Of a stretch of DNA of 20,000 nucleotides, positions 1-19,669 are shown in pieces. The translations under genes and the position numbers were made by a program. Numbering within the stretch: position 1 is the stretch's first letter; every line of letters begins with the position of its first letter. Source of the stretch: an uncultured virus (IMG/VR IMGVR_UViG_3300002488_000005) (taxonomy: Duplodnaviria; Heunggongvirae; Uroviricota; Caudoviricetes); IMG/VR virus record IMGVR_UViG_3300002488_000005, positions 58,618 to 78,617 of that record; one strand, 5' to 3'. Below the pieces are notes generated by a model. The model saw nothing but the letters and a program-made list of their open reading frames with translations. It was not told where the DNA came from and made no database searches.

Positions 1-191
1 GTGTTAAGCAGATTTGTCATCATTCAAACTCTAAGAAAAAGTATGAGGACGAGTCAGTCAGAGCTAGTGCACATTCGGATTGGTACTATACGCCATTCGA
101 AAACTACAAACAACCAGTCGATGTTGTGCTTGAGTGCAAGATGAAAGAGCAAGCGTTACTAAAATACAAAAAAGATTTTACATGCGTGTAG
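1..191 (+). CDS. uvsE: UV-damage endonuclease (UvsE/UVDE family), C-terminal fragment, 5'-truncated by the window
   Basis: Frame from nt 3 reads VKQICHHSNSKKKYEDESVRASAHSDWYYTPFENYKQPVDVVLECKMKEQALLKYKKDFTCV* (TAG 189-191). The H-x-S...AHSD...D-V-x-L-E-x-K-x-K-E-x-A-L pattern matches the UvsE C-terminus. Not in the ORF track. Confidence 0.8.
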   Translation, partial: VKQICHHSNSKKKYEDESVRASAHSDWYYTPFENYKQPVDVVLECKMKEQALLKYKKDFTCV

Positions 192-361
192 GCGATCTTG
201 TTGTTTGGAAGCCTGACCTGCCCTTTCAATTCTCTAGAGATTATGGAATTGTCATTGAGGTTATTGATGGCTTTTTGGTCGGTGTTTTGTGGCTCGGCTC
301 TACCGAAGTTTATTTAGAGCCAATTAGGTATTTGGAGGTTATTTATGAAGAGGGCAATTAG
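182..361 (+). CDS. Small SH3/KOW-like 'KVGDLV' family protein, copy 1
   Basis: MRVGDLVVWK...YGIVIEV...VGVLW...YLEVIYEEGN. The ATG at 182 overlaps the upstream stop; the ORF-track start at 134 is probably too long. Confidence 0.75.
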   Translation: MRVGDLVVWKPDLPFQFSRDYGIVIEVIDGFLVGVLWLGSTEVYLEPIRYLEVIYEEGN

Positions 362-557
362 TTCCATAAAGAAAGGTGCGCTTGTAAAAAAGAAGTACAA
401 TATTGACGAGGTTTTTGGCATCACAACCTCAAATGTCGAATACCATAGTCCAATGAACAGCGGCACAGTTACCGCATATATTTGGGTTTTATGGGATGAT
501 GGTGACCACCACCTTTACAAAGTAGATATGTTGGAGGAAGTAAATGAAAGTAGGTGA
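345..557 (+). CDS. Small SH3/KOW-like protein, copy 2 (divergent)
   Basis: IKKGALVKK...FGI...IWVLW...MLEEVNESR; GGAGG ends 6 nt before the ATG. Confidence 0.75.
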   Translation: MKRAISSIKKGALVKKKYNIDEVFGITTSNVEYHSPMNSGTVTAYIWVLWDDGDHHLYKVDMLEEVNESR

Positions 558-711
558 TTTAGTAAGAGTAAAAAATACGCCGTGGGATGATTTAGGAATT
601 ATTTTAGAAATAAACGGCAATTTCAAGTGGGCAGAAGTGCATTGGGTAACTTCCGGGTACATCTATGCTTTTTTTGCTGAAGACTTGGAGGTAGTAAATG
701 GAAGTGGGTGA
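544..711 (+). CDS. Small SH3/KOW-like 'KVGDLV' protein, copy 3 (55 aa)
   Basis: Hand translation MKVGDLVRVKNTPWDDLGIILEINGNFKWAEVHWVTSGYIYAFFAEDLEVVNGSG*; GGAGG RBS; below the ORF-track size cutoff. Confidence 0.85.
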   Translation: MKVGDLVRVKNTPWDDLGIILEINGNFKWAEVHWVTSGYIYAFFAEDLEVVNGSG

Positions 712-880
712 TCTCGTTTGGCTCGATAGGAGACAATTTTATGAGCATGACGAGAACGTTGGTATTATTTTAGAAGTCTTACAGACTCCTGATGGCAAAC
801 TTCTTAAAGTTGCATGGGATAATAATGAGGCTTCATGGTTTCACGAAGACGAATTGGAGGTAATAAGTGAAAATAGGTGA
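698..880 (+). CDS. Small SH3/KOW-like 'KVGDLV' protein, copy 4
   Basis: MEVGDLVWL...VGIILEV...LKVAW...ELEVISENR; GGAGG RBS. Confidence 0.85.
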   Translation: MEVGDLVWLDRRQFYEHDENVGIILEVLQTPDGKLLKVAWDNNEASWFHEDELEVISENR

Positions 881-1043
881 TTTGGTTAAACTTAAAACAG
901 GAACTGAGATTTATGGCTTCATTGTTTGTATACAAGAAAATAAATGGATTGGTTCTCGATGCGCCGTTGTCTGGCTACAGGACGGATTCCCAAAGAAATG
1001 GTATGCATTAGTCGAACTGGAGGTGTTAAATGAAAGTAGGTGA
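867..1043 (+). CDS. Small SH3/KOW-like 'KVGDLV' protein, copy 5 (58 aa, GTG start)
   Basis: Hand translation MKIGDLVKLKTGTEIYGFIVCIQENKWIGSRCAVVWLQDGFPKKWYALVELEVLNESR*; GGAGG RBS; not in the ORF track. Confidence 0.85.
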   Translation: MKIGDLVKLKTGTEIYGFIVCIQENKWIGSRCAVVWLQDGFPKKWYALVELEVLNESR

Positions 1044-1215
1044 TATAGTTTACATGAGCAAATCGATGCTCGAAATGGGATACCCAGAGATGGGAATAGT
1101 TGTGGGAATGAAAGGTAAACATTATGTTGTTGGTTTTCCAAATGGATTGGTTCAACCATTTCATCCTAACTGGGTTAGGGCCATATCAATCGAAAGGAAG
1201 AATAATGGCAAATAA
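1030..1215 (+). CDS. Small SH3/KOW-like 'KVGDIV' protein, copy 6
   Basis: MKVGDIVYM...MGIVVG...YVVGF; GGAGG RBS. Confidence 0.8.
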   Translation: MKVGDIVYMSKSMLEMGYPEMGIVVGMKGKHYVVGFPNGLVQPFHPNWVRAISIERKNNGK

Positions 1216-1450
1216 ATTTAAGGTAGGAGATCTTGTGAGGCATGTGCACTGGGATCTGTATGGAATAATTGTGCCAAGTGACAATTATTATAACTGGGTA
1301 AGAGTGATGTGGACTCGTGGAGATTTGGAAAAGCCACCCCAAGGAATTACTTGGATGATGAAGGAGGAACGAGTTGGTTGGAATTCAACACAATTCCCCG
1401 TTTGTAAAGTGGCGAAGCATTGGATCAAATTAGTACAAAAGGAGGAATAA
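1205..1450 (+). CDS. Small SH3/KOW-like 'KVGDLV' protein, copy 7
   Basis: MANKFKVGDLVRH...YGIIV...VRVMW; ATG at 1205 after AAGGA; the stop overlaps the primase start (TAATG). Confidence 0.8.
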   Translation: MANKFKVGDLVRHVHWDLYGIIVPSDNYYNWVRVMWTRGDLEKPPQGITWMMKEERVGWNSTQFPVCKVAKHWIKLVQKEE

Positions 1451-2388
1451 TGGAAGAAAAAGTTAAAATTTTATCGGAGATCTTGGGAAGACCCAACACT
1501 CCATCGGGCGGTGAGTTGTACTACCATTGTCCTTATTGTAATCATCACAAGAAGAAGTTGGCAGTCAATCTCAAGAAAGGTTGGCACTGCTGGGTCTGCG
1601 ACAAACGAGGCAAGAATGCTTATCGCATTGTCCGTAAGTTTGGAACATACCAGCAAAGACAGAAGTGGCTTGAGTTGGAAGGTCGTCTCGACCTATCAGA
1701 ATTTGATCAAATCTTTAATGAATTGAATAATCTTGAAGAAGTACAGACAATCTCACTACCAGATGAATTTATATCGCTCTGTAACAAACACCTGCCTCGC
1801 ACATGCAGAAAACCTTTAGAATACTTGGAGAGCAGAGGTATAGGCAAAGATAAGATACTGAGATGGAAAATAGGTTACTGTCCCGAAGGCCAATATGGAG
1901 GCAGAATAATCATACCTTCGTTCAACAATAACGGAGACATTAATTATTTTATTGCAAGATCTTATGTTGGTCACTCATGGAGATACCTCAATCCCCCGGC
2001 TAAAAAGGACGTTATTTTCAACGAATTGTTTGTAGACTGGGATGAGCCGATCACGTTAGTAGAAGGAGTTTTTGATGCTATAGCGGCTGGGGAAAATGCT
2101 ATTCCTGTGCTTGGGTCCACCCTGCGAGACAAAACAAAATTATTTCAGGCGATAGCCCTGAATGACACGCCGGTTTACTTAGCTTTTGATCAAGACGCTG
2201 AAAAAAAGACTGGACAAATTATTAAGAACATGTTATACTATGATATAGAGTTATACAAGATAGATGTAAGTGGCTTTGAGGACATCGCTGAAATGCCACG
2301 AAGGGTTTTGGAAACTCGAAGGGAAATGGCGCAAGCCATTGACCATGATGATTATTTTTTAATTGACGAACTTAGGAGGATAATGTGA
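1450..2388 (+). CDS. DNA primase (DnaG/T4 gp61-like; Zn finger + TOPRIM)
   Basis: CPYC...CWVC zinc ribbon; YLESRGI; RIIIP; TOPRIM VEGVFDA and AFDQD. GGAGG at 1441-1445 supports the ATG at 1450. Confidence 0.92.
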   Translation: MEEKVKILSEILGRPNTPSGGELYYHCPYCNHHKKKLAVNLKKGWHCWVCDKRGKNAYRIVRKFGTYQQRQKWLELEGRLDLSEFDQIFNELNNLEEVQTISLPDEFISLCNKHLPRTCRKPLEYLESRGIGKDKILRWKIGYCPEGQYGGRIIIPSFNNNGDINYFIARSYVGHSWRYLNPPAKKDVIFNELFVDWDEPITLVEGVFDAIAAGENAIPVLGSTLRDKTKLFQAIALNDTPVYLAFDQDAEKKTGQIIKNMLYYDIELYKIDVSGFEDIAEMPRRVLETRREMAQAIDHDDYFLIDELRRIM

Positions 2389-2582
2389 GTGAGAAAGAGA
2401 AAGAATATTTACAAAAAGATTATATTAAACTAAAAAATATATGCCGTGATCTTGTTTGGATGACACACGGAACAACGGATAAAGAAGAGCATTATGACTT
2501 AGTCAAAATGACAATACCAGCAATCAGGGAAGCCCTTGAAATTATGAAGCAACTTATAGAGGAGGAACAATGTATAAGATAG
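2385..2582 (+). CDS. Hypothetical protein
   Basis: GTG start overlapping the primase stop (GTGA), AGGAGG upstream, 3' end overlaps the next gene. Confidence 0.65.
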   Translation: MSEKEKEYLQKDYIKLKNICRDLVWMTHGTTDKEEHYDLVKMTIPAIREALEIMKQLIEEEQCIR

Positions 2583-5500
2583 CACACATAGCAGACACAC
2601 ACATAAGAAACTTGAAGTATCACGATGAGTATAGAATCGCCTTTCGTGATCTTTATGAAAAATTAGCAAGCGACATGCCGGACCTTATTGTCCATTGCGG
2701 TGACCTTGCACATACAAAGACGCAACTCAGTCCTGAATATTTTCAACTGTGCGCAGAGTTTCTATCGTCTTTAGCCAACATAGCGCCAACATATGTTATA
2801 TTGGGTAATCACGATGGCAATCTCAAGAACGACAGTAGGCAAGATGCGATTACGCCTATTGTAAATGCACTGAACCATCCACGATTACATTTACTAAAAG
2901 ATAGTGGTGAAGTTCATATTGGCAATGATTTGGTTCTAAATGTGCTTTCAATCTTTGACCGAGACAATTGGGCCAAACCAACAAACAAAGAAAAAATTAA
3001 CATTGCCTTGTATCATGGGGCAATTGCCGGTAGCCAAACCGGTGCAGAATGGACAATGGACCAAGGAGATGACGATGTTTCTATTTTTCATGATTTTGAT
3101 TTTGCGATGCTTGGAGACATCCACAGACAGCAACAGCTAGACCTTGATGGTAGAGTCTGGTACTGTGGTTCAACCACTCAGCAGAAATTTAGCGAGTCTG
3201 CTCGCAAAGGTTATCTTTTGTGGGAAATAAACTCAAAAGACAAGTTTAACGTTTCAAAAAGATTCGTAATAAATCCAAGACCNTTTATTACAATAAGNCT
3301 AACAGATAAAGGTGCGCTACCAGACACTCATGTACCTAGAAATGCAAGACTCAGAATCATCTCTAGAACCAATTTGCCGGCTGATAAACTTAGGAAGGCA
3401 AGATCAATAGCGGAAATGAAATGGAGCCCTCATTCCGTAACAATGCTCAACGGCAAAGAATCGTCAAAAATGCATGATGAAGGCTATTATTCGAACTCTG
3501 TCTTATCTGAAAATCTAAGAGATATCAGTGTGCAAGAAAAATACATTAAGAACTATTTATCCGACATGGAGCTTGAACCTAGCGTTTTGGAAAAGGTTCT
3601 TGAGCATAACCAGAAATACAATACATTAGCAGAACAAGGGGAGGAAGTTAGTAGAAATGTTATATGGAAAATTAAAAAAGCAGAATGGGACAATTTGTTC
3701 AACTACAGTGAAAAGAATGAAATCGACTTTGCAAAACTCAACGGGCTTGTTGGCATCTTTGGCCGTAATTATTCCGGCAAGTCTAGTATTATCGACAGCA
3801 TTTTATTCACGCTGTTTAATGCAACCTCGAAAGGTGAGCGAAAGAACGTACACGTCATAAACCAAAATAAGCAAAAGGCTATTGGTAAGGTAGAGATTGA
3901 GGTTGGAGATAAAACCTACAAAATCTGTAGAAATTTAGAGAAGTATACTAAAAAGTATAAAGGCAAGGAGTCTCAAGAGGCTAAAGTTGATTTAGATTTT
4001 CATCTAGTTTCTGATGATGAAAGCCTGAACGGTACAACAAGGAATGAAACTGATTCCAACATTAGAAAGCACTTTGGGAGCATGGAGGACTTTTTGTTAA
4101 CATCCATGTCTTCCCAGTTAGATTCTTTGTCTTTTGTCAAAGAAGGTTCTACGAAGCGTAAAGAAATTCTCGCTAAGTTTCTGGATTTGGAAATATTTGA
4201 TAAAAAGTTCAAGTTGGCCAAAAAGGACGCTGCTGAGTTGCGTGGTGTCGTAAGAAGGCTACAGGATAAAAAGTGGGATAAAGAGATCCAAAAGAACATA
4301 GAGATCTTGGAGGAAATCAAGCACGATCTTGCTAACCAAAATACCAAATGTCAAAAAATAACATCAGAGTGCGACAGTCTTCAGGCAGAACTTGACATTC
4401 TCAATTCCAGAATTGAGAACATACCAGCAGAGCCAATTGACATTGATAAGGTTATTTTAGAAATTAGTAAGATACAGAAACGTAAGCAGCACCTCAAAGA
4501 TCAAACTCAAGATTTCAATTTCAAGGTCTGGGAAATGGAAGAGCAGGTTGAATCTAAAAAGAAAGAGTTTGCGGAGATCAATATAGGCGAATTACGTCTT
4601 AGTAGAGCATCTGCTGATGCTATCGAGCATAAAATCAAAAAGACACGTGAAGCTATATCAAACTGGATTTCGCAAGAAAAGGTAGCACTAAAAAAGATCA
4701 AGATGTTAGATAATCACGAATATGATCCCAACTGCGTGTTCTGTTGTGAAAATAAGTTCGTCAAAGATGCACATGATGCTAAATCTTCTTTACCCGATAC
4801 GTTGGAGAAAATTGCCCATCTACAGCAGCACCAAAGAGATCTACAGGACTCGCTAAATGACCTAGACGTAGAAACAGTAGATAGCCAAATTGATTTACAT
4901 GTCAAACTACAGGAAGACATTCACCGCCTAAGCAGAACAATTGAGATGCACAAAATTTCTATTGAAGGCAACAAATCAAAAATAAATCTCCTACATAAGG
5001 AATACGAAGAGTTGTGTGAAAAGAAAAACCTTTATGAAGAAAATCGAGAAGCAATTGAAAATTTAGAGACATTATCTAGAGAAAAGAATGCTTTAGAAAT
5101 GGTAATTCGCAGTAAGCAAAATTCTTATAAAAAGTGCCAAGATAGAATAACTGAGATTCTTGTTGAGAAAGGGTCAACCAAGTCGACATTGGCTACGTTG
5201 CTTGAAAACCGTAAAGAACTAGAGGATGTTGAGAGAGAGTGGATCGCTTATGATTTGTTTTTGCAATGTATGCATGCAAATGGCATTCCTTACCAAATTA
5301 TAAAACAAAAACTTCCTTTACTAAATGAAGAGATTGCAAAAATTCTAGAGAACATCGTTGATTTTGAAGTCTTTTTTGAGAGTAATGATGCAAAGCTCGA
5401 CATCAACATAAAGCACCCATATTATGATCCTCGTCCGTTATCTATGGGTTCAGGCGCAGAAAAGACATTGGCATCGATGGCAATACGTTTAGCTTTGATT

Positions 5501-5719
5501 TCAATAACAAATTTGCCAAAGAGCGAACTATTTATACTTGACGAACCAGCAACTGCTTTAGATCAAGAACACATGGAAGGCTTTACAAGATTGCTAAGAT
5601 TGATTAAAAACCAATTCAAGACTGTAATTCTAATCTCCCATCTTGATTCCTTAAAAGACGTTGTCGACATGACAATTGAAATTGATAAAGTTGATGGCTA
5701 TGCTAATGTGAGGGTGTAA
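2570..5719 (+). CDS. Fused Mre11/SbcD nuclease - Rad50/SbcC ATPase (T4 gp47-gp46-like)
   Basis: N-terminal metallophosphoesterase motifs (HIADTH, GD, GNHD, YHG, GDIH), then Walker A GRNYSGKS, long coiled coils with a central CVFC Zn-hook, signature-like SGAEK, Walker B FILDEP and H-loop ISH, all in one 1049-aa ORF. Confidence 0.93.
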   Translation: MYKIAHIADTHIRNLKYHDEYRIAFRDLYEKLASDMPDLIVHCGDLAHTKTQLSPEYFQLCAEFLSSLANIAPTYVILGNHDGNLKNDSRQDAITPIVNALNHPRLHLLKDSGEVHIGNDLVLNVLSIFDRDNWAKPTNKEKINIALYHGAIAGSQTGAEWTMDQGDDDVSIFHDFDFAMLGDIHRQQQLDLDGRVWYCGSTTQQKFSESARKGYLLWEINSKDKFNVSKRFVINPRXFITIXLTDKGALPDTHVPRNARLRIISRTNLPADKLRKARSIAEMKWSPHSVTMLNGKESSKMHDEGYYSNSVLSENLRDISVQEKYIKNYLSDMELEPSVLEKVLEHNQKYNTLAEQGEEVSRNVIWKIKKAEWDNLFNYSEKNEIDFAKLNGLVGIFGRNYSGKSSIIDSILFTLFNATSKGERKNVHVINQNKQKAIGKVEIEVGDKTYKICRNLEKYTKKYKGKESQEAKVDLDFHLVSDDESLNGTTRNETDSNIRKHFGSMEDFLLTSMSSQLDSLSFVKEGSTKRKEILAKFLDLEIFDKKFKLAKKDAAELRGVVRRLQDKKWDKEIQKNIEILEEIKHDLANQNTKCQKITSECDSLQAELDILNSRIENIPAEPIDIDKVILEISKIQKRKQHLKDQTQDFNFKVWEMEEQVESKKKEFAEINIGELRLSRASADAIEHKIKKTREAISNWISQEKVALKKIKMLDNHEYDPNCVFCCENKFVKDAHDAKSSLPDTLEKIAHLQQHQRDLQDSLNDLDVETVDSQIDLHVKLQEDIHRLSRTIEMHKISIEGNKSKINLLHKEYEELCEKKNLYEENREAIENLETLSREKNALEMVIRSKQNSYKKCQDRITEILVEKGSTKSTLATLLENRKELEDVEREWIAYDLFLQCMHANGIPYQIIKQKLPLLNEEIAKILENIVDFEVFFESNDAKLDINIKHPYYDPRPLSMGSGAEKTLASMAIRLALISITNLPKSELFILDEPATALDQEHMEGFTRLLRLIKNQFKTVILISHLDSLKDVVDMTIEIDKVDGYANVRV

Positions 5720-10754: not shown

Positions 10755-12338
10755 ATGGCCTTCAGGTTAACAAAGAAACAGATTGTTAAAGAAATACTAA
10801 AATGTGGAAAAGATGCTCCACATTTTATTAATAATTATTGTCGAATAAGTCACCCCATGAAAGGTTTGATTCAGTTCAAGACTTACCCATATCAAGATGA
10901 TTTACTAAATGATTATAATGATTTTAGATTCAACGTTATTCTAAAAGCTAGGCAGTTAGGGATATCAACCATTACTGCTGCTTATTGCGTTTGGTTTATG
11001 CTTTTCCACAAAGAAAAGAACATTGTTGTTCTTGCGACCAAGTTCAGCACAGCGGCGAACTTAGTAAAAAAAGTAAAAAGTATGATGAAGAATTTACCTG
11101 AGTGGATGAAAATAGCAACAATTGACGTTGACAATAGAACGTCTTTTGAATTATCTAATGGCTCAATCATAAAAGCAGTGCCCACTTCTGAAGACGCTGG
11201 TCGTTCAGAGGCGTTATCTTTGCTTGTTGTTGATGAGGCTGCTCATATAGAAAAAATGAATGAAATTTGGACTGCGGTTTACTCCACGCTAGCAACTGGT
11301 GGTCGGTGCATTGCACTTTCTACTCCAAAAGGAACGGGAAACTGGTTTCACAAGACGTATATTGGGGCAGTTGACGGAGAAAACGAATTCAATCCCATAG
11401 AGCTAATGTGGGATGTGCACCCGGAGCGAGATCAGGCTTGGTTTGAAAAGGAAACTAAAAACATGTCTAAGAGACAAGTGGCCCAAGAATTGCTCTGTAA
11501 TTTTAACACCTCCGGAGATACAGTTGTTCATCCGGATGATTTGGCTTGGATTCAAGGAAACATCAAAGATCCGATCTATAGAACTGGATATGATAGAAAT
11601 TTTTGGATTTGGGAGAAATTTGACGGCAATAACCAATACTTACTAACAGCAGACGTAGCCAGAGGCGATGGTGCAGATAATTCTGTATTCCATGTCATAA
11701 AACTAAACACCATGGAGATCGTAGCAGAATATCAGGGCAAACCATCTTTAGATTTATATTCTAGGATCCTGTTTGATGCCGGTGTTGAATACGGAAATTG
11801 CTTATTAGTTGTCGAGAACAACGGAATTGGGATCTCTGTTTTAGAAAAGCTATGTGATTTGGGATATCCTAATCTTTACTATTCAATAAAGTCAACGCAT
11901 GAGTTCGTTGAGTCTTATCAGGGGGAAGTGATGGACAAGGCCGTAGCAGGGTTTACTACTTCTACCAAGACAAGGCCACTGGTTGTGGCTAAATTGGAAG
12001 AATTTTTTAGGAATCGACTCTTAACAACTTATTCATCTAGAATTTATCACGAATTGAAGACATTTATTTGGCAAAACGGCAAACCACAAGCAATGCGTTC
12101 ATATAACGACGATTTGGTTATGGCACTTGCCATCGGCTGCTGGGTCAGAGATACCGCTCTACAGGTCAACAAGAGAGAAGTAGAATATAAAAAAGCGCTA
12201 TTGAATTCTATGTATAAAAGTGACAGCGTTATGAACACAACAATTAAAGGAATGAAGGGCTACAACGAAAAAATTGAAGAAAAACAACAAAAATTCAAAG
12301 AAGATATGACTAAATTCTCATGGATTTACAAAGGATAA
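10755..12338 (+). CDS. Terminase large subunit (T4 gp17-like)
   Basis: YPYQ adenine-binding motif, Walker A KARQLGIST, Walker B LLVVDEAA, motif III STPKG, nuclease acidic motifs ADVARG and DDLVMA. Confidence 0.95.
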   Translation: MAFRLTKKQIVKEILKCGKDAPHFINNYCRISHPMKGLIQFKTYPYQDDLLNDYNDFRFNVILKARQLGISTITAAYCVWFMLFHKEKNIVVLATKFSTAANLVKKVKSMMKNLPEWMKIATIDVDNRTSFELSNGSIIKAVPTSEDAGRSEALSLLVVDEAAHIEKMNEIWTAVYSTLATGGRCIALSTPKGTGNWFHKTYIGAVDGENEFNPIELMWDVHPERDQAWFEKETKNMSKRQVAQELLCNFNTSGDTVVHPDDLAWIQGNIKDPIYRTGYDRNFWIWEKFDGNNQYLLTADVARGDGADNSVFHVIKLNTMEIVAEYQGKPSLDLYSRILFDAGVEYGNCLLVVENNGIGISVLEKLCDLGYPNLYYSIKSTHEFVESYQGEVMDKAVAGFTTSTKTRPLVVAKLEEFFRNRLLTTYSSRIYHELKTFIWQNGKPQAMRSYNDDLVMALAIGCWVRDTALQVNKREVEYKKALLNSMYKSDSVMNTTIKGMKGYNEKIEEKQQKFKEDMTKFSWIYKG

Positions 12339-12342
12339 AAAA

Positions 12343-14286
12343 ATGGCTTATAATAAAAATAACAAGAATCCGTATAATGAAACATCAGGGCTTTTCAAAG
12401 CGCTCACAAAATTATTTTCGGGTCCAATAATAAATAGAAGAACTCAAACAGGCAGAAAACTCAGACGCAGACATTTAGACATGTTTTCATCTAAGTTTAG
12501 ATCTGCTAGCGGTAAACAATTCAAAAAGACAGAATACAATGCAATGAATGCGATCACTGTCAACATGATCTCGGCTAGAAATAGAACAGAGCGTTATGTA
12601 GATTTTGATGAAATGGAATATGAACCAATAATTGCATCTAGTATTGATATTTATGCGGACGAAATCACTACACACTCCTCAATACAACCAATGTTGAAGA
12701 TCAAGTGTCCGAATGATGAAATAAAGGCAATTTTAAATTCATTATATTACAATGTTTTGAACATAGAGCACAATCTTTTTGGATGGGCTCGCACCATGTG
12801 TAAGTATGGCGATCTATTTTTGTATTTAGACCTTGACGATAACATAGGAGTTCGTTCGTGCATTGGGATTCCGTCCCAAGAAGTGGAAAGATTAGAAGGC
12901 GAAGATGAATCAAATCCAAATTATGTACAATTCCAGTGGAATTCTGCTGGTTTGACATTAGAAAACTGGCAGGTTGCACATTTTAGGGTTTTAGGAAACG
13001 ACAAGCACTATCCATACGGGACCTCAGTCTTAGAGCCAGCCAGACGCATATGGAGGCAGCTAATTTTGTTAGAAGACGCCATGATGGCCTACAGAATTGT
13101 TCGTTCTCCAGAAAGACGAGCATTTTATATTGATGTTGGGTCTATTCCCCCGCAAGATGTTGAGCAATATATGCAAAAAGTCATGACTCAAATGAAGAGA
13201 CACCAAGTTGTTGATCCGAAAACTGGTCGGGTTGACTTACGATACAATCCGCTTTCTATTGAGGAGGATTATTTTATTCCAATCCGTGGTGGTGCTTCCA
13301 ACACAAAAATCGAATCTATGAAAGGTGGGGAATTTACCGGCCAAATAGAAGATGTTAAGTATCTGCGTGAAAAGTTGTTCGCAGCGTTAAAAATCCCACA
13401 ATCATACCTTGTTATGGGTGAGGGCGCACAAGAAGACAAGACAACATTGGCCCAAAAGGACATCAGGTTTGCGAGAACAATTCAAAGACTACAAAGATCT
13501 GTTGTGTCTGAATTGGAAAAAATAGGAATTATACATCTTTTTACATTGGGCTATCGTGGAGATGACTTGCTGTCATTCAAGTTAGGTTTGAACAACCCTT
13601 CAAAAATAGCAGAATTACAAGAACTGGAGCACTGGAAGACTAAATTCGACGCAGCGGGTGCGGCCACTGAAAACTATTTCTCTAGAAGGTGGGTAGCAGA
13701 AAACATGTTGGGTGTATCCGAAGAAGAGTTCCTCAGAATGCAAAGAGAGATGTACTTCGACAAAAAATTCTTAGCAGATCTTGAAAAAGCAGCATCTGGT
13801 GAACAAGGAGGCGGTGACGATCTCGGTGGTGGTGATCTAGGCGGAGACCTTGGCGGCGATCTCGGTGGGGACCTTGGTGGTGATTTGGACCTCGGAGGTG
13901 ATGAAGGCGGTGATGCCGGAGAAGATGAAGGAGGAGACGCTGGTGGTGACGATGATGTTCTATTGGCAGCGCCCGGCAAAAGAGATGAGGACATTTGGGT
14001 TCGTGCAGATGCGGCCAAGTTCAAGAGAGGCAAATATAAAAGGCACAAGTCTTCTTATGACAAAGGCGGCAGAAGAAAGCAGATGAAAAATATGGCTACT
14101 GGAGAATATGGACAAACTGGGCGATCAATCTGGAAAGGATATCCAGAACTGAGTCGTTTAGGGAAAGGTATTATAGAATCTCATAAAGTAGAAGAAAATA
14201 AACTATTTAGTACTAAAGATGAAACAGCTTACTTAGTTGAAGGCTTACTATCAAAGAGGAATAATGATGAAAATGAAGCACAATAA
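12343..14286 (+). CDS. Portal protein (T4 gp20-like) with low-complexity C-terminal extension
   Basis: LEDAMMAYRIVRSPERRAFYIDVG, EEDYFIP, EDVKYLREKLFAALKIP and DIRFARTIQRLQ are gp20-family motifs; follows the terminase. Confidence 0.93.
   Translation: MAYNKNNKNPYNETSGLFKALTKLFSGPIINRRTQTGRKLRRRHLDMFSSKFRSASGKQFKKTEYNAMNAITVNMISARNRTERYVDFDEMEYEPIIASSIDIYADEITTHSSIQPMLKIKCPNDEIKAILNSLYYNVLNIEHNLFGWARTMCKYGDLFLYLDLDDNIGVRSCIGIPSQEVERLEGEDESNPNYVQFQWNSAGLTLENWQVAHFRVLGNDKHYPYGTSVLEPARRIWRQLILLEDAMMAYRIVRSPERRAFYIDVGSIPPQDVEQYMQKVMTQMKRHQVVDPKTGRVDLRYNPLSIEEDYFIPIRGGASNTKIESMKGGEFTGQIEDVKYLREKLFAALKIPQSYLVMGEGAQEDKTTLAQKDIRFARTIQRLQRSVVSELEKIGIIHLFTLGYRGDDLLSFKLGLNNPSKIAELQELEHWKTKFDAAGAATENYFSRRWVAENMLGVSEEEFLRMQREMYFDKKFLADLEKAASGEQGGGDDLGGGDLGGDLGGDLGGDLGGDLDLGGDEGGDAGEDEGGDAGGDDDVLLAAPGKRDEDIWVRADAAKFKRGKYKRHKSSYDKGGRRKQMKNMATGEYGQTGRSIWKGYPELSRLGKGIIESHKVEENKLFSTKDETAYLVEGLLSKRNNDENEAQ
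13819..13899 (+). repeat. Coding tandem repeat (DLGG)x6 in the portal tail
   Basis: Mostly 12-bp units GAYCTNGGNGGN with synonymous variation. Confidence 0.85.
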
Positions 14287-15091
14287 GAAAAGAAATACCG
14301 CTTTTCTTTACGAATGTCTTGTAAAAGAACTTACAAAATCAATTGTTAGAAATGATAAAGACAAAAAGAAAGCAATTATAAAGATTATAAAAGAGTTTTA
14401 CTGTAGAGGATCACTCTTGAGAGAGGATTTGGAAATATACAAATCGGTTCTAGAATCCAACAAGATGTCTACAGAGTTCGCCAAAAGATTTATCTTTGAA
14501 GCGAAAAAAGACTACGACGCTTTAGATAGAAAAGCTATCTTCAACCTCCAGACAAAGCTGATTAGAGCCATTAACGAGACGTTATCAAACAATGCTTTTG
14601 CTAACTTTATATCAAACTACAAAGACATAGCGTCTGTTGGTGCTTTTTTTGATTCCAATTTGAAGGCAAAAAACAGACTAATTGTCGAATCTAGGCTGCT
14701 GACAAAATTGACTAAAAAGCCTAGTGCCGAAAAGGAAATGAGGCATATTGATAACCTGACTTATAAAACTTTTGTGGATTCTTTTAACAAGAGATATGAA
14801 AAGACATTAAGAAAAGAGCAAAAGGACTTACTGACTAATTATATTGTTTCTTTTTCTGATAATGGATTAGGCCTAAAATCGTTCATGAATGAGGAAATTT
14901 CACGACTTATAAAAGAGGTAGATAACATTACCGAAACTCAAAAAAACGATAAAAATGGTATGTTTTTGTCCAAAATAGAGCGTGTTTCTACTAAGTTGAA
15001 AGACTTTTCAAAGAAGCCTATCTGTGAGCAAATGGTAAAAGATGTTTTTTATATACAAGATTTAGTAGCGGAGATCAATAGAAATGCCTAA
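14264..15091 (+). CDS. Hypothetical protein downstream of portal (head module)
   Basis: GAGGA RBS at 14256-14260 with ATGs at 14264/14267/14273; MKHNKKRNTAFLYE; largely helical. Confidence 0.75.
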   Translation: MMKMKHNKKRNTAFLYECLVKELTKSIVRNDKDKKKAIIKIIKEFYCRGSLLREDLEIYKSVLESNKMSTEFAKRFIFEAKKDYDALDRKAIFNLQTKLIRAINETLSNNAFANFISNYKDIASVGAFFDSNLKAKNRLIVESRLLTKLTKKPSAEKEMRHIDNLTYKTFVDSFNKRYEKTLRKEQKDLLTNYIVSFSDNGLGLKSFMNEEISRLIKEVDNITETQKNDKNGMFLSKIERVSTKLKDFSKKPICEQMVKDVFYIQDLVAEINRNA

Positions 15092-15770
15092 TTTGAAAAT
15101 AACACCCAAAGACATGCTCAATGTTGATTTATACGATGATGTTGATGTTAGAGTGCAACAGGCGCAACAAGTTCCAGTTCAAATAACGGGCCTTCCGAGT
15201 CAGGAAGAGAAGGTTAGCGTCAATATCAAGCCGCCTGACATGTCTGTTAACATCATTAACGATAAGAAAAGAGTATTTGAATTTCAACTAAATGTTAGAA
15301 GCGCTTTGAATGGCGACTTTATGATTTTTGACCATAAAGACATTGATATCATGATAATAAAGGAAAAAAAGAAAATTGTTGCATTTGCTAAAGACATGAT
15401 GTCGGAGGCGGTTTATGGTGCCGAAAATCGACTTTTCAACCATCTACGTAAAAAAGGGATTGTGGCTTATGACTCAATAAAAGGCGGTAGCGTCTATGGG
15501 TCTCTAGAAGCCCTTATGTTGGAAGCCAAAGATAAAAAAGAGCCGGAAGTTCTTGATTTAGTTTTATATCAAATTAGTGAATGGATGAAGAACGAAAAAC
15601 CACATTTTGAAACCGATAACGATTATGATGATCTTATCAATGACTATTATTCAGATCCAGAAGAAGACCAGTCGACTGAGTTAGGCGAAGTGCCACATGA
15701 AGAAGAAAAAGGATCAATAAGGCAGCATGGCTTGTTTGCTCCATATCTTTACGGGAGATATACGTACTAA
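15084..15770 (+). CDS. Hypothetical protein with acidic C-terminus
   Basis: 228-aa ORF; GGAG RBS; overlaps both neighbours. Confidence 0.72.
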   Translation: MPNLKITPKDMLNVDLYDDVDVRVQQAQQVPVQITGLPSQEEKVSVNIKPPDMSVNIINDKKRVFEFQLNVRSALNGDFMIFDHKDIDIMIIKEKKKIVAFAKDMMSEAVYGAENRLFNHLRKKGIVAYDSIKGGSVYGSLEALMLEAKDKKEPEVLDLVLYQISEWMKNEKPHFETDNDYDDLINDYYSDPEEDQSTELGEVPHEEEKGSIRQHGLFAPYLYGRYTY

Positions 15771-16597
15771 TGATATTATCTGCCTTTCAAATAAAGCAAA
15801 TAATAAAAGAAGAAATAGAATTCTTTTTAGACGAAGATAGAAGGGGTAACAAAATAATTGGCTATCACGCAACAAACACAGGGGTAAATCTATCTAATGT
15901 GCTTGGATGGAAAGAGATTACAACCAATAGGAGCGTAGATATGGCCTCTGCTCAGGGTGGTGGCTTTTACTTATTTAGTGACAAGAATAGAGCACTAAGA
16001 AGACTCAAGAGCACTGCGGCAGTCTCTGATTGGGATGAAGAAACAGGCATTCATTCATATAGAAAGATGGATCCTGATTTAGATGGACTAGGTATGATTA
16101 TAACCCTAGAGGTCCCCTACAGCTTTAGGCACTTGGAAATAGATTATGAGGTTAGCTACGACATTTGGATTGATTTCGTAATCACCTATATGGATAGGTT
16201 CTTGTCCTTAACGCTGCCTAATGGACAAAAGATTTTTGATTATTATGACAAAGAAAATAATAGGATTGTAGTTAANCCACCATACAACGTAAAAAGACAA
16301 TTAGGCCCTTATATTACATTAGACAAGAAAATATCTGGTGGCACAAAAAGATTGGTTGGGAACGTTATGTCTAGAGTTTTCAAATTTATGGAACAAGGAC
16401 TATTTGGTTCTGCTGCTAAGGGAATTCACCAAGAGTTCGAAGAGCAGCTAATTGAGAAAGCACCAGCATTCAAGTATAATGGGAAAAACATCTCACCAAC
16501 TAAAATAGAAATTGTTGTAAATGATAGATTATATGACGTGACAAAAGAAGTTCTTTCTGGGGATTTCGAACGTATGAAAGCAAAACTGGAGATTTGA
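15770..16597 (+). CDS. Leader-bearing protein with putative H-Y-E-class ADP-ribosyltransferase-like domain
   Basis: Leader MILSAFQIKQIIKEEI, then IIGYHATN...QGGGFYLFSD..RA, and a late EIVV strand. Confidence 0.5.
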   Translation: MILSAFQIKQIIKEEIEFFLDEDRRGNKIIGYHATNTGVNLSNVLGWKEITTNRSVDMASAQGGGFYLFSDKNRALRRLKSTAAVSDWDEETGIHSYRKMDPDLDGLGMIITLEVPYSFRHLEIDYEVSYDIWIDFVITYMDRFLSLTLPNGQKIFDYYDKENNRIVVXPPYNVKRQLGPYITLDKKISGGTKRLVGNVMSRVFKFMEQGLFGSAAKGIHQEFEEQLIEKAPAFKYNGKNISPTKIEIVVNDRLYDVTKEVLSGDFERMKAKLEI

Positions 16598-16905
16598 TGG
16601 ATTTACTATATTTTATTCTTGCCTCATATGGCTTGACCTTTATTTTGGTTTATGGCAAGATTTTTGAAGACCTAAGGCCGGCAAAAGATTATAGTAAAAA
16701 ATGGAATACACTATTTCATTGCCCTCTTTGCGTAGGATTTTGGACAGGATGCTTTCTTTTTTTGATAAACGCCGGAACCGAACTATTTACTTTTGATTAC
16801 ACAATTGCAAATTTTTTTATTTGCGGTTGGATCTCATCTGGGACTTCTTATTTTCTATCTATGGTAGTGGATGATTCCGGATTTAAAATAACAAAAAAGG
16901 AATAA
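16597..16905 (+). CDS. DUF1360-like membrane protein
   Basis: Three hydrophobic segments with an LFHCPLCVGFW motif. Confidence 0.6.
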   Translation: MDLLYFILASYGLTFILVYGKIFEDLRPAKDYSKKWNTLFHCPLCVGFWTGCFLFLINAGTELFTFDYTIANFFICGWISSGTSYFLSMVVDDSGFKITKKE

Positions 16906-16908
16906 AAG

Positions 16909-17232
16909 ATGAAATTAACAAGCAAAAGACTTAAGCAAATGATCAAGCGGGAACTAAAGGAAATGATGTCTTACAATAGAGATGATGACCAAAGAAGCAA
17001 GAATGCATTCATGATGCATCATTTGAACAACGTTTTGAATGGGATTACTGCTATCCCTGTTGACCAAAAAGCACAAATTGAATCTTCAGTGAAAAACTAT
17101 ACAAGAAATGCAGATTTTCCACAGACATTTGATAATGCTTTAGAAATGGCTCTCAATGATACAGTGCCCGAATTACCTAGTGAGTTAAAAGGAATGATCA
17201 TGCAGCAAGTAAGATCACAATCAGGAGAATAA
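16909..17232 (+). CDS. Hypothetical protein with 'MKLT..LK.MIKREL' leader
   Basis: MKLTSKRLKQMIKRELKEM; AAGGA RBS. Confidence 0.75.
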   Translation: MKLTSKRLKQMIKRELKEMMSYNRDDDQRSKNAFMMHHLNNVLNGITAIPVDQKAQIESSVKNYTRNADFPQTFDNALEMALNDTVPELPSELKGMIMQQVRSQSGE

Positions 17233-17233
17233 A

Positions 17234-17287
17234 ATGACTAAAAAATGGATGTTACAGCCCGTTCGACGTTGTTGTTCAGGAAGCTGA
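17234..17287 (+). CDS. 17-aa peptide MTKKWMLQPVRRCCSGS
   Basis: AGGAG at 17223-17227, ATG 1 nt after the previous stop, TGA at 17285-17287; fills the gap before the protease. Confidence 0.5.
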   Translation: MTKKWMLQPVRRCCSGS

Positions 17288-17292
17288 CTCAA

Positions 17293-17307
17293 GCGGGTAA
17301 CGCCCGC
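17293..17307 (+). promoter_or_regulatory. GC-rich hairpin upstream of the protease RBS
   Basis: GCGGG-TAACG-CCCGC perfect 5-bp stem in an AT-rich context; no U-tract follows. Confidence 0.5.
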
Positions 17308-17321
17308 AATAAGGAAAGAAA

Positions 17322-17948
17322 ATGGCTAAAAAATTATTAACAGAATTTTTTGAACTTTGCAAGGATGGTATTTGCCAAGACCTGTTGACCGAGAGGGAAA
17401 AGAGAGAAATGGCAAATGGCGTTCTGTATTTATCTGGTAGACTTCAGACATGCGAAAAAAAGAATGGCAATGGAAGAGTCTACCCGTGTAAAGTTCTTGA
17501 TAGAGAGATTAACAATTACAAAAGAGTTATAGAGGACAACAGGGCTTTAGGCGAACTAGATCACCCTGATGACTCGGTTATAAATCTTAGAAATGCTTCT
17601 CATATGGTAACAGACATCTGGTGGGAAGGAAATGATGTAATGGGCAAGATAAAGGTCCTAGACACACCATCTGGTAAGATCTTGAAAGATCTTATCAATA
17701 ACGGCGTAAAATTAGGAATTTCTTCTAGAGGCCTTGGATCTGTAAAAGAAAGCATGGGAAACACTGTTGTGCAAGAAGACTTTGAACTAATCTGCTTTGA
17801 CATTGTTTCGGAACCATCAACGCCCGACGCCTACATATATCCAGAGCAGAGCGCTTCGGGCAGAACCATTAGGATGCGTGAAAACAAACTTAATGAAAAG
17901 AAAGATCTGATACTTAACGATCTTTTTGATAAAATTTTGAGAGACTAA
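17322..17948 (+). CDS. Prohead core protein protease (T4 gp21-like)
   Basis: KNGNGRVYP, ALGELDHP, GISSRGLGS and FDIVSEPS motifs. Confidence 0.93.
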   Translation: MAKKLLTEFFELCKDGICQDLLTEREKREMANGVLYLSGRLQTCEKKNGNGRVYPCKVLDREINNYKRVIEDNRALGELDHPDDSVINLRNASHMVTDIWWEGNDVMGKIKVLDTPSGKILKDLINNGVKLGISSRGLGSVKESMGNTVVQEDFELICFDIVSEPSTPDAYIYPEQSASGRTIRMRENKLNEKKDLILNDLFDKILRD

Positions 17949-18355
17949 TGAATAAAAATGAACTAAAGAGAATCTTGAAACCTCTTATAAAGGAGTGTAT
18001 CAAGGAAGTGCTTTTTGAAGAAAGTGGCGCTTTGTCGCATGTTATAAAAGAAGTTGCGGTTGGTTTATCTGGAAAAGAAACAATAACAGAATCCAACTAT
18101 AATGCGCCCAAACCCAAGGCAAACAATAAGCACTTAAAACAAAAAAAGAAAAAATTGCTTGATGTTATTGGGCGTGATGCTTACAACGGAATAGATCTTT
18201 TTGAAGGGACAACCCCGGCTCCAGCGCCTGTTCAAACTGGAAACGGTAGAGGTCCATTGTCTGATGTGGCCCCTAATGATCCCGGAGTTGATATAAGTGA
18301 AATTTTTAATGCAAAATCATTTGCAATTTCTAGAAAAATGATGGGGAAAGAATAA
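17948..18355 (+). CDS. Hypothetical head-module protein with leader-like N-terminus
   Basis: MNKNELKRILKPLIKECIKEVLFEE; TAATG overlaps on both sides. Confidence 0.7.
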   Translation: MNKNELKRILKPLIKECIKEVLFEESGALSHVIKEVAVGLSGKETITESNYNAPKPKANNKHLKQKKKKLLDVIGRDAYNGIDLFEGTTPAPAPVQTGNGRGPLSDVAPNDPGVDISEIFNAKSFAISRKMMGKE

Positions 18356-18561
18356 TGGCAACAAATCTGGTTGTAAAGCCTAGAAGGGGCGAAAATATTG
18401 AGCGAGTTATAAAAAGGTTCAATAGGAAAGTAAAGAAACTTGGAATCATAAACGAATACAAGGAAAGTCAAAGGTATACTAAGCCTTCTGATAAGCGAAG
18501 ATTGAGAAACAAGAGATCCGATAGAAGAAGAGCAAAGGAATTAGCAAAAGCTAACAAATGA
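18355..18561 (+). CDS. rpsU: Phage-encoded ribosomal protein bS21
   Basis: 68 aa, very basic; V...GENIERVIKRFNRKVKK.GII.E.K....Y.KPS.KRR is the bS21 signature. Confidence 0.88.
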   Translation: MATNLVVKPRRGENIERVIKRFNRKVKKLGIINEYKESQRYTKPSDKRRLRNKRSDRRRAKELAKANK

Positions 18562-18568
18562 CTATTTA
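18561..18568 (+). promoter_or_regulatory. Candidate phage late-promoter element ACTATTTA
   Basis: At the gene boundary, 21 nt before the ATG at 18590; the same RACTAWTTA motif recurs at 7 other + strand sites. Confidence 0.4.
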
Positions 18569-18589
18569 TAAAAGATTGGAGAAATAACT

Positions 18590-19051
18590 ATGTCAGTACA
18601 TAAGTATACAAGTTGGGGCAGGACAAGAAGCCCAAAAAATATAGCAGGCTCTCAAGGTGGAACAGTAACACCGGTTGAGAGTTTAGATGATTTAAGAGGA
18701 ATCACGTCAGCAATTGGAAGTCAGGGTTACGCAACAGAAAACCAAAGATACTTGCATGTGTTGATTGAAGATACTAATGAAGACGACAGCGAAACTGTAA
18801 CTGTCTTTGGGTATTGCCACGCATTTCAAAGATGGTTTCCTCTTATGACAAGAGTCGGAGGAACAAATGCTGCTCAAAGCGGAACAGAGGAAATAAGCAT
18901 AGTCGGTGAGGATTCCAATCTTACTCCTGCCAGTTGTACACCCGACAAACGCACATATCGAGTTTATGAAATTGTCGGAGTTGACAGGGTAGCGTTTCAT
19001 TGTGCTGACGCTTCTGAGATTAATCTCTTTGCCGCTTGTAGCACATTTTAG
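18590..19051 (+). CDS. Hypothetical, probably virion-associated protein
   Basis: 153-aa ORF; GGAG RBS; S/T/G-rich; lies in the structural region. Confidence 0.65.
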   Translation: MSVHKYTSWGRTRSPKNIAGSQGGTVTPVESLDDLRGITSAIGSQGYATENQRYLHVLIEDTNEDDSETVTVFGYCHAFQRWFPLMTRVGGTNAAQSGTEEISIVGEDSNLTPASCTPDKRTYRVYEIVGVDRVAFHCADASEINLFAACSTF

Positions 19052-19063
19052 TAGGAAACAACT

Positions 19064-19669
19064 ATGGCAGATTTTGGATGGGCATATTTATCTGGGGCAG
19101 TAACTGGTGAAGGACCGGCAAAAAGCATACAGTATTTGAAAGCAACTAACGGTGAATTAACCGGTAGTTCTAAATTTACATTTGATCAAAGCACAAATAA
19201 GCTGTTCTTGACCGGAACAATGATAATCAGCGGAACCATTCAAGCACTTACGTTTGACGTAATCCACACAAATAAAATAGAATTGCAATCTTCGGGTAGC
19301 AGTAATTTTGGTAACGATAGCGGCGACACACATGTTTTTACAGGGAGCGTTTCTATAGTTTCTGGTGCTTTTAGGAATCATTACAAAAGACTAACAACGA
19401 CCTCATACACAGCTAGTGCCTATGACTCAATAATTGGAGTTAGCGCCAGTGCGGCTGTGTCTATAAAGTTGCCATCGGCAGCAAGCGCTTATGGTAGAGT
19501 TCTTATAATAAAAGACGAATGGTCTTTTACCAGAACAAACCCAAAAGCGATCGGAATTACGGCCTCCTCTGGTCAAAAAATAGACCATGCGGATAATTAT
19601 GGTATCACTGGAGATAATGCTGCTCTCAGTTTATACTCGGATGGTGTTTCCAAGTGGTTCATCTATTAG
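19064..19669 (+). CDS. Virion fibre/decoration-like protein
   Basis: S/G/T-rich with FGNDSGDTHVFTGS and a C-terminal LP.A....GR.LIIKDE...LYSDG..KWFI module of the kind seen in phage fibre proteins. Confidence 0.6.
   Translation: MADFGWAYLSGAVTGEGPAKSIQYLKATNGELTGSSKFTFDQSTNKLFLTGTMIISGTIQALTFDVIHTNKIELQSSGSSNFGNDSGDTHVFTGSVSIVSGAFRNHYKRLTTTSYTASAYDSIIGVSASAAVSIKLPSAASAYGRVLIIKDEWSFTRTNPKAIGITASSGQKIDHADNYGITGDNAALSLYSDGVSKWFIY

Follow-up and report, generated by a model that had tools for sequence, protein, structure and literature searches.

The question raised by this locus is how one family of very small genes comes to be strung together through nearly the same junction several times over, and whether that junction is a place at which whole genes are exchanged. 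The window analysed here, 20,000 nucleotides (nt) long, is the last 20 kb of a 78,617-b IMG/VR viral record (IMGVR_UViG_3300002488_000005; CheckV completeness 43%, GC 37.6%). At positions 182-1450 it holds seven successive, overlapping + strand open reading frames (ORFs) of 55-81 amino acids (aa), which belong to a single family, as an earlier preliminary description of this DNA had claimed, and are flanked by uvdE and a DNA primase gene. We favour, with a probability of roughly 0.7, the reading that these ORFs form a co-transcribed array of SH3-like mini-genes in which the junction provides the short homology for whole-unit shuffling. The units (u1 to u7) and the borders of the array are:

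3..191, + strand: 3' end of uvdE, left border of the array, with a 10-nt overlap with the start of u1
182..361, + strand: u1, 59 aa, first in the array; with GGC as Gly4 codon no TGA arises, and it has no upstream GGAGG
345..557, + strand: u2, 70 aa, with the deviant N-terminus MKRAISSIKKGALV and a 17-nt overlap with u1
544..711, + strand: u3, 55 aa, a canonical unit
698..880, + strand: u4, 60 aa, a canonical unit, folded by AlphaFold2
867..1043, + strand: u5, 58 aa, with a GTG start
1030..1215, + strand: u6, 61 aa, without the W and LEV motifs
1205..1450, + strand: u7, 81 aa, extended at the N-terminus (MANKF) and carrying an insertion that separates strands 3 and 4; its stop shares 1 nt with the ATG of primase
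1450..2388, + strand: DNA primase (DnaG-type), right border of the array; phrog_47, E 9.7e-38

Aligned with one another, the units are 22-37% identical to u1 and have G4, V7, G22 and V35 invariant, and their interiors are unrelated at the DNA level with the protein pattern retained. The common skeleton that had been proposed for all seven is borne out in these invariant positions but not in every motif, since u2 has KKGALV for KVGDLV, u6 departs as listed above, and u7 ends in IKLV in addition to its insertion. The repeated element is the junction between units, which occurs in its canonical form at four places:

531..563, + strand: junction u2/u3, made of the last-strand codons with GGAGG, a 6-nt spacer, ATG, and the next gene's start with an embedded TGA
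685..717, + strand: junction u3/u4, matching the 33-nt consensus
854..886, + strand: junction u4/u5, matching the 33-nt consensus
1017..1049, + strand: junction u5/u6, matching the 33-nt consensus

The near-identity of these four sites, noted from the start, was confirmed: each matches the 33-nt consensus with 1-2 mismatches, no match occurred in 200 dinucleotide-preserving shuffles, and a scan of the whole 78,617-b record for a looser form of the pattern returned the same four sites and no others. At all four the GGAGG ends exactly 6 nt ahead of the start codon (ATG or GTG), also as first described, and the upstream TGA is embedded in the downstream GGT-GAT codons, which gives an overlap of 14 nt. 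This overlap had been called fixed; it is so at the canonical junctions, which are four of the six unit-unit junctions, but not at u1/u2 (17 nt) or u6/u7 (11 nt). The LEV motif is used twice over, as the last strand of one protein and, in the form TTG-GAG-GTN, as the ribosome-binding site of the next gene. The four residues that follow LEV-I come from a reading, shifted by one base, of ATG-AAA-GTN-GGT-GA at the start of that next gene. Where the downstream Gly codon is other than GGT no TGA is formed and the upstream ORF runs on (for example L005 4866-5063, which ends in ...ENRRFSKD), so the NESR-type tail is passive: it is simply the next gene's start in another frame.

The same anatomy was found well beyond the window. 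Among all fetched loci, 284 distinct junctions of the 14-nt overlap class were collected, and these are conserved from -12 to +19 around the start codon, with downstream units starting at ATG (131), GTG (152) or TTG (1). Among the 278 internal units, GAGG or GGAG is present in 249 and the full GGAGG in 147, at a fixed distance. The 14-nt overlap was seen in 22 of 33 abutting pairs in loci fetched by way of the primase gene, a sample independent of the junction pattern, and in 173 of 212 overlapping pairs in loci fetched by the pattern, after 109 seed junctions had been excluded. At junction position +8 (the Val3 wobble) most arrays have C, and A is found in the window's lineage and in L144, so that lineages carry slightly different junction variants. 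No inverted repeats were found at the junctions; the single inverted pair in window 100-1500 lies off-junction. In window 1-2600 there is no + strand terminator-like site, and the promoter-like sites (9, against 7.1 +/- 3.1 in shuffles) are not in excess, which fits a single transcript for the array. At the right end of the array, where the canonical junction is missing, there is a second direct repeat:

1193..1221, + strand: left copy, the ribosome-binding site and ATG region of u7
1438..1466, + strand: right copy, the ribosome-binding site and ATG region of the primase start

These copies are 83% identical over 29 nt and bracket u7, which suggests that u7 was inserted into the array, or could be removed from it, in the same way but at another repeat.

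The syntenic loci of relatives were fetched through the primase gene, for which 321 relatives were found in viral contigs. Upstream of primase they carry the following units:

Window (and L012, which is identical): u1-u7
L005 (primase 94% identical): u1', u2', u3', u4', X, Y and u6', then an HNH-type ORF
L006 (primase 95%): u1', u3', Z and u6', then a 66-aa ORF
L007 (primase 86%): 11 abutting units, and 3 more about 4 kb further upstream
L008: three units, including one u4 orthologue
L009: a u4 orthologue, then a u2 orthologue
L010 and L011 (primase 82%): three other units

No relative with a primase 82-95% identical to that of the window has the window's array between uvdE and primase. Orthologues of u1 are 61% identical in L005 and 65% in L006, and those of u6 are 68% and 84%, respectively; u2 has an orthologue of 58% identity in L005, none in L006, and one in L009 that adjoins primase, and the u4 orthologues sit in four different neighbourhoods (the window, L005, L008 and L009). 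For u5 no orthologue of at least 50% identity was found in L005-L013. The two other ORFs of the list are observations of a separate kind: that of 146 aa in L005 (5577-6017), with an HNH-type Cys/His motif read by eye, lies between the last unit and primase and is absent from the window, and a common 66-aa ORF, probably helical, lies directly upstream of primase in the place of u7 in both L006 (5039-5239) and L008 (5817-6017).

On a broader scale, 914 units, each called at a start codon, were found in all fetched loci, and these represent 628 distinct DNA sequences and 474 orthogroups (single linkage, identity of at least 55%). Comparisons of the abutting family neighbours of one orthogroup in two locus groups show a different orthogroup as neighbour in 147 of 157 cases, and with focal units of at least 85% identity still in 13 of 16. 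Gene order across orthogroup pairs conflicts in 48 cases and agrees in 85, and because of the 48 conflicts differential loss from one ancestral array is insufficient as an explanation. The preliminary description had spoken of a gene accordion; in its strict sense, the amplification of near-identical copies, this is rare, as just one of 335 abutting pairs is a recent duplicate (identity of at least 55%; this pair is 79% identical). Of 2,730 within-genome unit pairs 2,686 are below 40% identity or unalignable, and the arrays are strings of anciently diverged cassettes.

The breakpoints of rearrangement were located in pairs of near-identical genomes, three of which differ by an indel of whole units:

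L106 vs L152: exactly one unit, in 176 nt; 40 nt of junction identity at the borders; flank identity 99.9% and 98.6%
L095 vs L102: one unit, in 176 nt; border identity in a 20-nt repeat at the gene start; flank identity 99-100%
L132 vs L164: three units, in 540 nt; about 8 nt of border identity; flank identity 91% and 95%

In all three both breakpoints lie inside the junction, and the three-unit indel contains, in tandem, a duplicate with 79% identity to the unit next to it. The distinct internal ends of matches of at least 93% identity in arrays, which are not independent events, all fall between -20 and +23 nt from a unit boundary (29 of 29), a distance within which 35% of random positions lie (binomial p 8e-14). 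The arrays of relatives are thus neither fixed nor syntenic, and their breaks fall where the preliminary description had expected them. Its proposal that no integrase takes part also agrees with our data: tyrosine and serine recombinase domains (PF00589, PF00239) were found in none of five array-bearing records, three of them at least 90% complete, with positive results in the control genomes. In contigs from other marine runs, only pieces of about 40 nt at the junctions match the window (around 528-566, 845-891 and 1014-1052). Many joints in such contigs lead from junction to junction, with sides of only 20-42 nt; they are likely to stem from other organisms or repeats and were not counted as deletion variants.

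It had been asked earlier whether the junction is more conserved than two protein frames and a ribosome-binding site require, and our data indicate that it partly is. Lys2 is AAA in 217 of 239 internal units and in 77 of 94 first units without an upstream ORF (background 0.52), Val3 is GTC in 174 of 222 and 37 of 71 (background 0.19), and Gly4 is GGT in 278 of 278 and 77 of 109 (background 0.29), respectively. The other invariant Gly is GGT in just 172 of 525 units. Since the codons of Lys2, Val3 and Gly4 are over-conserved and that of the other Gly is not, the 5' end of the units is constrained as DNA or RNA. The cause may be optimisation of translation initiation, a recent move of first units out of internal positions, or recombination that homogenises these sites.

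The explanation that we propose starts from the protein. The conserved scaffold residues lie at both protein ends, in strand 1 (MKVGDLV) and strand 5 (LEV-I). Owing to the 14-nt gene overlap, each ribosome-binding site is written in the last-strand codons of the unit before it, and the first five codons of a unit provide the tail and the TGA stop of its predecessor. A stretch of about 32 nt (-12 to +19) is as a result nearly alike at every junction and could serve as a short homology of 8-40 nt. At such a repeat phage recombination, single-strand annealing or template switching may then delete, insert, duplicate or reorder whole units scarlessly, with no need of a site-specific recombinase, and a working start, stop and ribosome-binding site would be restored every time. 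One stretch would in this way do four jobs, as last strand, as ribosome-binding site, as start codon and first strand of the next protein and as exchange point, and as a consequence every recombinant would be an expressible gene. The geometry further suggests that ribosomes are passed from unit to unit by translational coupling, and we infer that the junction causes the rearrangements rather than merely surviving them.

Several points weigh against this explanation. Junctions share only short exact sequence: for pairs of junctions in the same locus the longest exact match has a median of 10 nt and a maximum of 36 nt and reaches 20 nt or more in 72 of 837 pairs, and the four junctions of the window share at most 18 nt of exact identity. 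Classical homologous recombination would be inefficient on such short tracts, so that short-homology recombination, annealing or template switching is likely instead of a long-tract process. Gene-sized indels with overlaps of 7-41 nt also occur in unrelated phage loci without the family (L032-L039, L042/L053), and selection against broken genes would likewise concentrate the surviving breakpoints at gene borders. The wobble positions -5, -2, +17 and +20 vary freely, and most of the junction conservation is accounted for by the two terminal strands (1 and 5) together with the ribosome-binding site and the embedded stop. The similarity of free junction sites is 0.606 within and 0.573 between genomes, and 0 of 300 shuffles reach this difference; genome composition could be the source of this weak homogenisation signal. 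The sampling has its own effects, as loci L085-L235 were fetched by the junction pattern itself and are not independent of it, and the merging of genomes with an identical unit before the neighbour counts removed those pairs that are most syntenic. The neighbour comparisons, like the homology ends, are not independent, and fast-evolving orthologues may have been split between orthogroups. Finally, the net charge of the 628 distinct units is spread widely (294 negative, 70 neutral, 264 positive), and hence does not point to any single ligand class.

A rival account is that of an ordinary birth-and-death multigene family, in which generic illegitimate or microhomology recombination and selection for intact genes shape the arrays and the junction has no causal role. 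On this account the LEV(I) last strand, the MKVGDLV first strand and the GGAGG 6 nt ahead of the start codon are enough to keep the junctions alike; the free wobble sites, the short exact identity and the gene-sized indels elsewhere are then as expected, and selection for intact genes does contribute to the border pattern. It is harder to see from it why the synonymous codons of Lys2, Val3 and Gly4 are over-conserved even in the 109 first units without an overlapping upstream ORF, with the other invariant Gly at background, or why the three indels between near-identical genomes are all bounded by the junction repeat with a working junction regenerated and 29 of 29 homology ends lie near unit borders. 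In addition, we noticed no unit that was truncated or scarred in the arrays that were read, though no systematic search for such units was made. We regard it as rather unlikely that this account is sufficient. At the other end of the scale, the junction could be a selected, self-restoring recombination module, a coding equivalent of the integron attC without an integrase. The 5' synonymous sites would then be held since exchangeable cassettes tap an ocean-wide pool of thousands of SH3-like binder cassettes, which would be reassorted in co-infection to match host defences or targets, as a whole-mini-gene counterpart of combinatorial repertoire systems; we consider this unlikely.

Two further alternatives concern the nature of the units themselves. 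They might be made as a chain, a tandem-SH3 polyprotein produced by a +1 frameshift at each junction or descended from a decayed multi-domain gene. Each successive unit is indeed in the +1 frame relative to the preceding one, the family profile matches long proteins with 4-14 SH3-type repeats, and P0149, a natural protein of 127 aa, consists of two family units joined in frame through the junction (...LEVVKQVKVGDLV...), so that a small change of frame at the junction can turn two genes into one two-domain protein. A chain is nevertheless very improbable, since the 284 junctions have start codons (an argument that is partly circular, the units having been called at a start codon) and the internal units have their ribosome-binding sites at a fixed distance, the upstream frame stops at TGA 11 nt past the start, no slippery heptamer is seen in the junction consensus, and units are gained and lost singly. 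That the repeats are non-coding DNA or RNA elements (e.g. regulatory repeats) with accidental ORFs is hardly credible. The periodic DNA repeat itself, and nothing more, speaks for it, and against it stand the confident fold predictions, the interiors that are unrelated as DNA with the protein pattern kept, and the zero Rfam family matches in the window. The substitution pattern is also that of genes: in 71 orthologous pairs the differences by codon position number 646, 493 and 1302, third positions dominating, and half of the differing codons are synonymous (836 vs 838 non-synonymous). The units are coding and under purifying selection.

The fold was modelled with AlphaFold2, for u4 from an alignment of 43 units. 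The model of u4 is a five-strand barrel (strands 6-9, 22-30, 33-39, 45-49 and 53-57) with a predicted local distance difference test score (pLDDT) of 88.2 and a predicted template modelling (TM) score of 0.74, in which LEVIS forms the last strand, followed by an unstructured ENR tail. For u7, which deviates most, the same five strands are predicted in the same order (pLDDT 76.9), its insertion being of low confidence (residues 53-61 below 50). By these models both units belong to the fold class of SH3-like small beta-barrels, and the units share a fold, as the preliminary description had supposed. Foldseek gave no match in the PDB at E<=1e-3, and its best rows there are SH3-like barrels with TM scores of 0.65-0.75, namely PetP (2n5u, 7r0w_V), YorP of the SPbeta prophage (2heq), the eS4 KOW domain, PWWP and PsaE. 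In BFVD the best match has E 8.4e-5 and a TM score of 0.80, and the matches are mostly unnamed viral proteins together with T4-type Gp30.5, DUF4314 and the UBE2O SH3-C domain. What the units have in common with PetP, YorP, eS4 KOW, PsaE, Gp30.5, DUF4314 and UBE2O SH3-C is the five-strand barrel (TM about 0.7-0.8), a likeness at the level of fold only, from which no functional assignment follows.

The label SH3/KOW-like given in the preliminary description is therefore right at the fold level, but the KOW motif of Pfam (PF00467) has no match at E<=1 in any of the seven units. The N-terminal xVGDxV followed by a conserved Gly is, as we take it, reminiscent of the KOW pattern. Other Pfam families stay below their cut-offs, the best bit scores being 13 for PetP/Tsr0524-like PF11061 (cut-off 25), 12.6 for DUF1918 PF08940 (24), 11.5 for DUF2158 PF09926 (22.3) and 18.6 for YccV-like PF08755 (22.8). 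The Mind-bomb SH3 repeat (PF18346), a domain mostly found in tandem copies along a single polypeptide, likewise has no match at E<=1 in any of the seven. The proteins matched by the profile of the 43 units include long ones with 4-14 matched stretches, and eight of these were compared with Pfam. In P0121 and P0123 the highest-ranking family was PF18346, matched as separate domains, and in P0122, P0124 and P0140 it scored more weakly, over the whole protein; another of the eight, P0125, is a SprB-repeat protein. A distant superfamily link of the units to Mind-bomb SH3 repeats is thus possible. The idea of a cyanophage, taken from the fold matches to PetP and PsaE, was rejected, as the psbA-type domain PF00124 was found in 0 of 5 records.

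The closest precedent for the array is the shuffling mediated by PeSLs in T4-type phages. PeSLs are reported to be intergenic regulatory cassettes of a sigma-70-like early promoter and a terminator stem-loop that flank unrelated ORFans, and they have been described in modular shuffling of T4-type hyperplastic regions (Arbiol et al. 2010, PMC2839356; Comeau et al. 2014, PMC4122927). The likeness is that a short conserved repeat between small non-essential ORFs of a large lytic phage is the exchange point between close relatives without a site-specific recombinase, and that the breakpoints of indels or replacements lie in the repeated motif, as do the three indels and the homology ends here. The differences are that the repeat described here codes in two frames and carries a ribosome-binding site, without a promoter, terminator or hairpin signal, that all cassettes here are of one protein family, and that the phage is not T4-like in its primase (best isolate match 33% identical). 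Repeat-driven shuffling is thus already known from T4-type phages, where the repeats are promoter-terminator cassettes.

Two other systems offer a partial comparison. Integrons require the IntI tyrosine recombinase and folded attC sites. Like integron arrays, the present one consists of small cassettes in a row that are promoterless, individually mobile and read from one side, and relatives vary in which cassettes they have and in what order; unlike them, it comes with no PF00589 or PF00239 in the five records and no attC-like inverted repeats at the junctions. In poxvirus gene accordions near-identical copies of one gene are amplified. Here, too, a tandem array in a large double-stranded DNA virus expands and contracts by recombination between repeated units, but recent duplicates are almost missing, as stated above. 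A literature search for a phage counterpart of the poxvirus accordion found none.

The family itself is very large and extremely diverse, has no Pfam match above cut-off and is present in up to about 20 copies per near-complete genome. At E<=1e-3 the 43-unit profile matched 1,063 proteins in a collection clustered at 90%, all of them named hypothetical and none with a Pfam domain, and 4,262 representatives at 50% identity, the matches listed being mostly of 52-75 aa. A scan of viral contigs for the junction pattern gave at least 151 stretches, of which 150 carry one or more family members, with up to 19 units in 6 kb. In near-complete genomes of 185, 191, 293 and 159 kb there are 16, 17, 18 and 20 family matches, respectively, spread over several loci. 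In PHROGs the units gave weak matches only, to families of unknown function, and the nearest clusters in the ESM Atlas are viral hypothetical proteins without Pfam domains. The family appears to be confined to uncultured marine phages of about 160-290 kb, and literature searches, within the terms tried, found no description of the family or the array.

Among GTDB species representatives the junction pattern was found in 10 stretches, with arrays in 7, all in marine metagenome-assembled genomes of five phyla. These arrays (L238, L240 and L243-L247) are in genomes labelled Deltaproteobacteria, Flavobacteriales, Planctomycetota, Acidiferrobacteraceae and Legionellales. They were considered as a clue to the host and set aside: they are probably, and most simply, mis-binned phage contigs and name no host.

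As to function, the conserved residues lie in the strands and the variable ones in the loops, and the arrays are located in variable regions beside replication and repair genes. Together with the wide spread of charge this suggests one scaffold with diversified surfaces for different partners. The proteins may be diversified binders that act early in infection on host proteins or defences, and a role in host takeover or counter-defence is a tentative proposal that we hold at somewhat below an even chance. The family would then be a plausible store of small binders directed against host proteins, and if targets were found it would be a natural mini-binder library and a tractable case for measuring the turnover of phage accessory repertoires.

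As to the surroundings of the array, the full uvdE ORF (L001:219-1160) matches the Pfam family UvdE PF03851 (UV-damage endonuclease) with E 8.7e-53. By protein the closest isolates are Flavobacterium phage immuto (large terminase 47%, primase 33% identical) and Microcystis phage Mel-JY01; neither has a family match (0 each). A blastn search of window 1-2400 against 50,697 phage records gave no match. The DNA of the window occurs in marine metagenome runs, and the sequencing runs listed as containing it include no RNA run. Most other ORFs in window 10755-19669 have no PHROG match at E<=1e-5. Downstream of the array the following genes were recognised:

2570-5719, downstream of primase: SbcD-SbcC-like fused nuclease, a single ORF of 1,049 aa with an SbcD-like phosphoesterase and an SbcC/SMC-like ATPase
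10755-12338, same strand as the array: large terminase, structural module
12343-14286, same strand as the array: portal, structural module
17322-17948, same strand as the array: prohead protease, structural module

The translation of the SbcD-SbcC-like ORF has two X residues, which come from Ns in the record. A solitary, divergent ORF that resembles the family is present in the same record outside the window (C1:11853-12071, 72 aa, with KIGDLV...GIIV). It was not accepted as an eighth member, as it matched the first profile (E 5e-4) but no longer passed the threshold once the profile had been iterated. This ORF is flanked by two others which, read from the sequence by eye, resemble glycosyltransferases.

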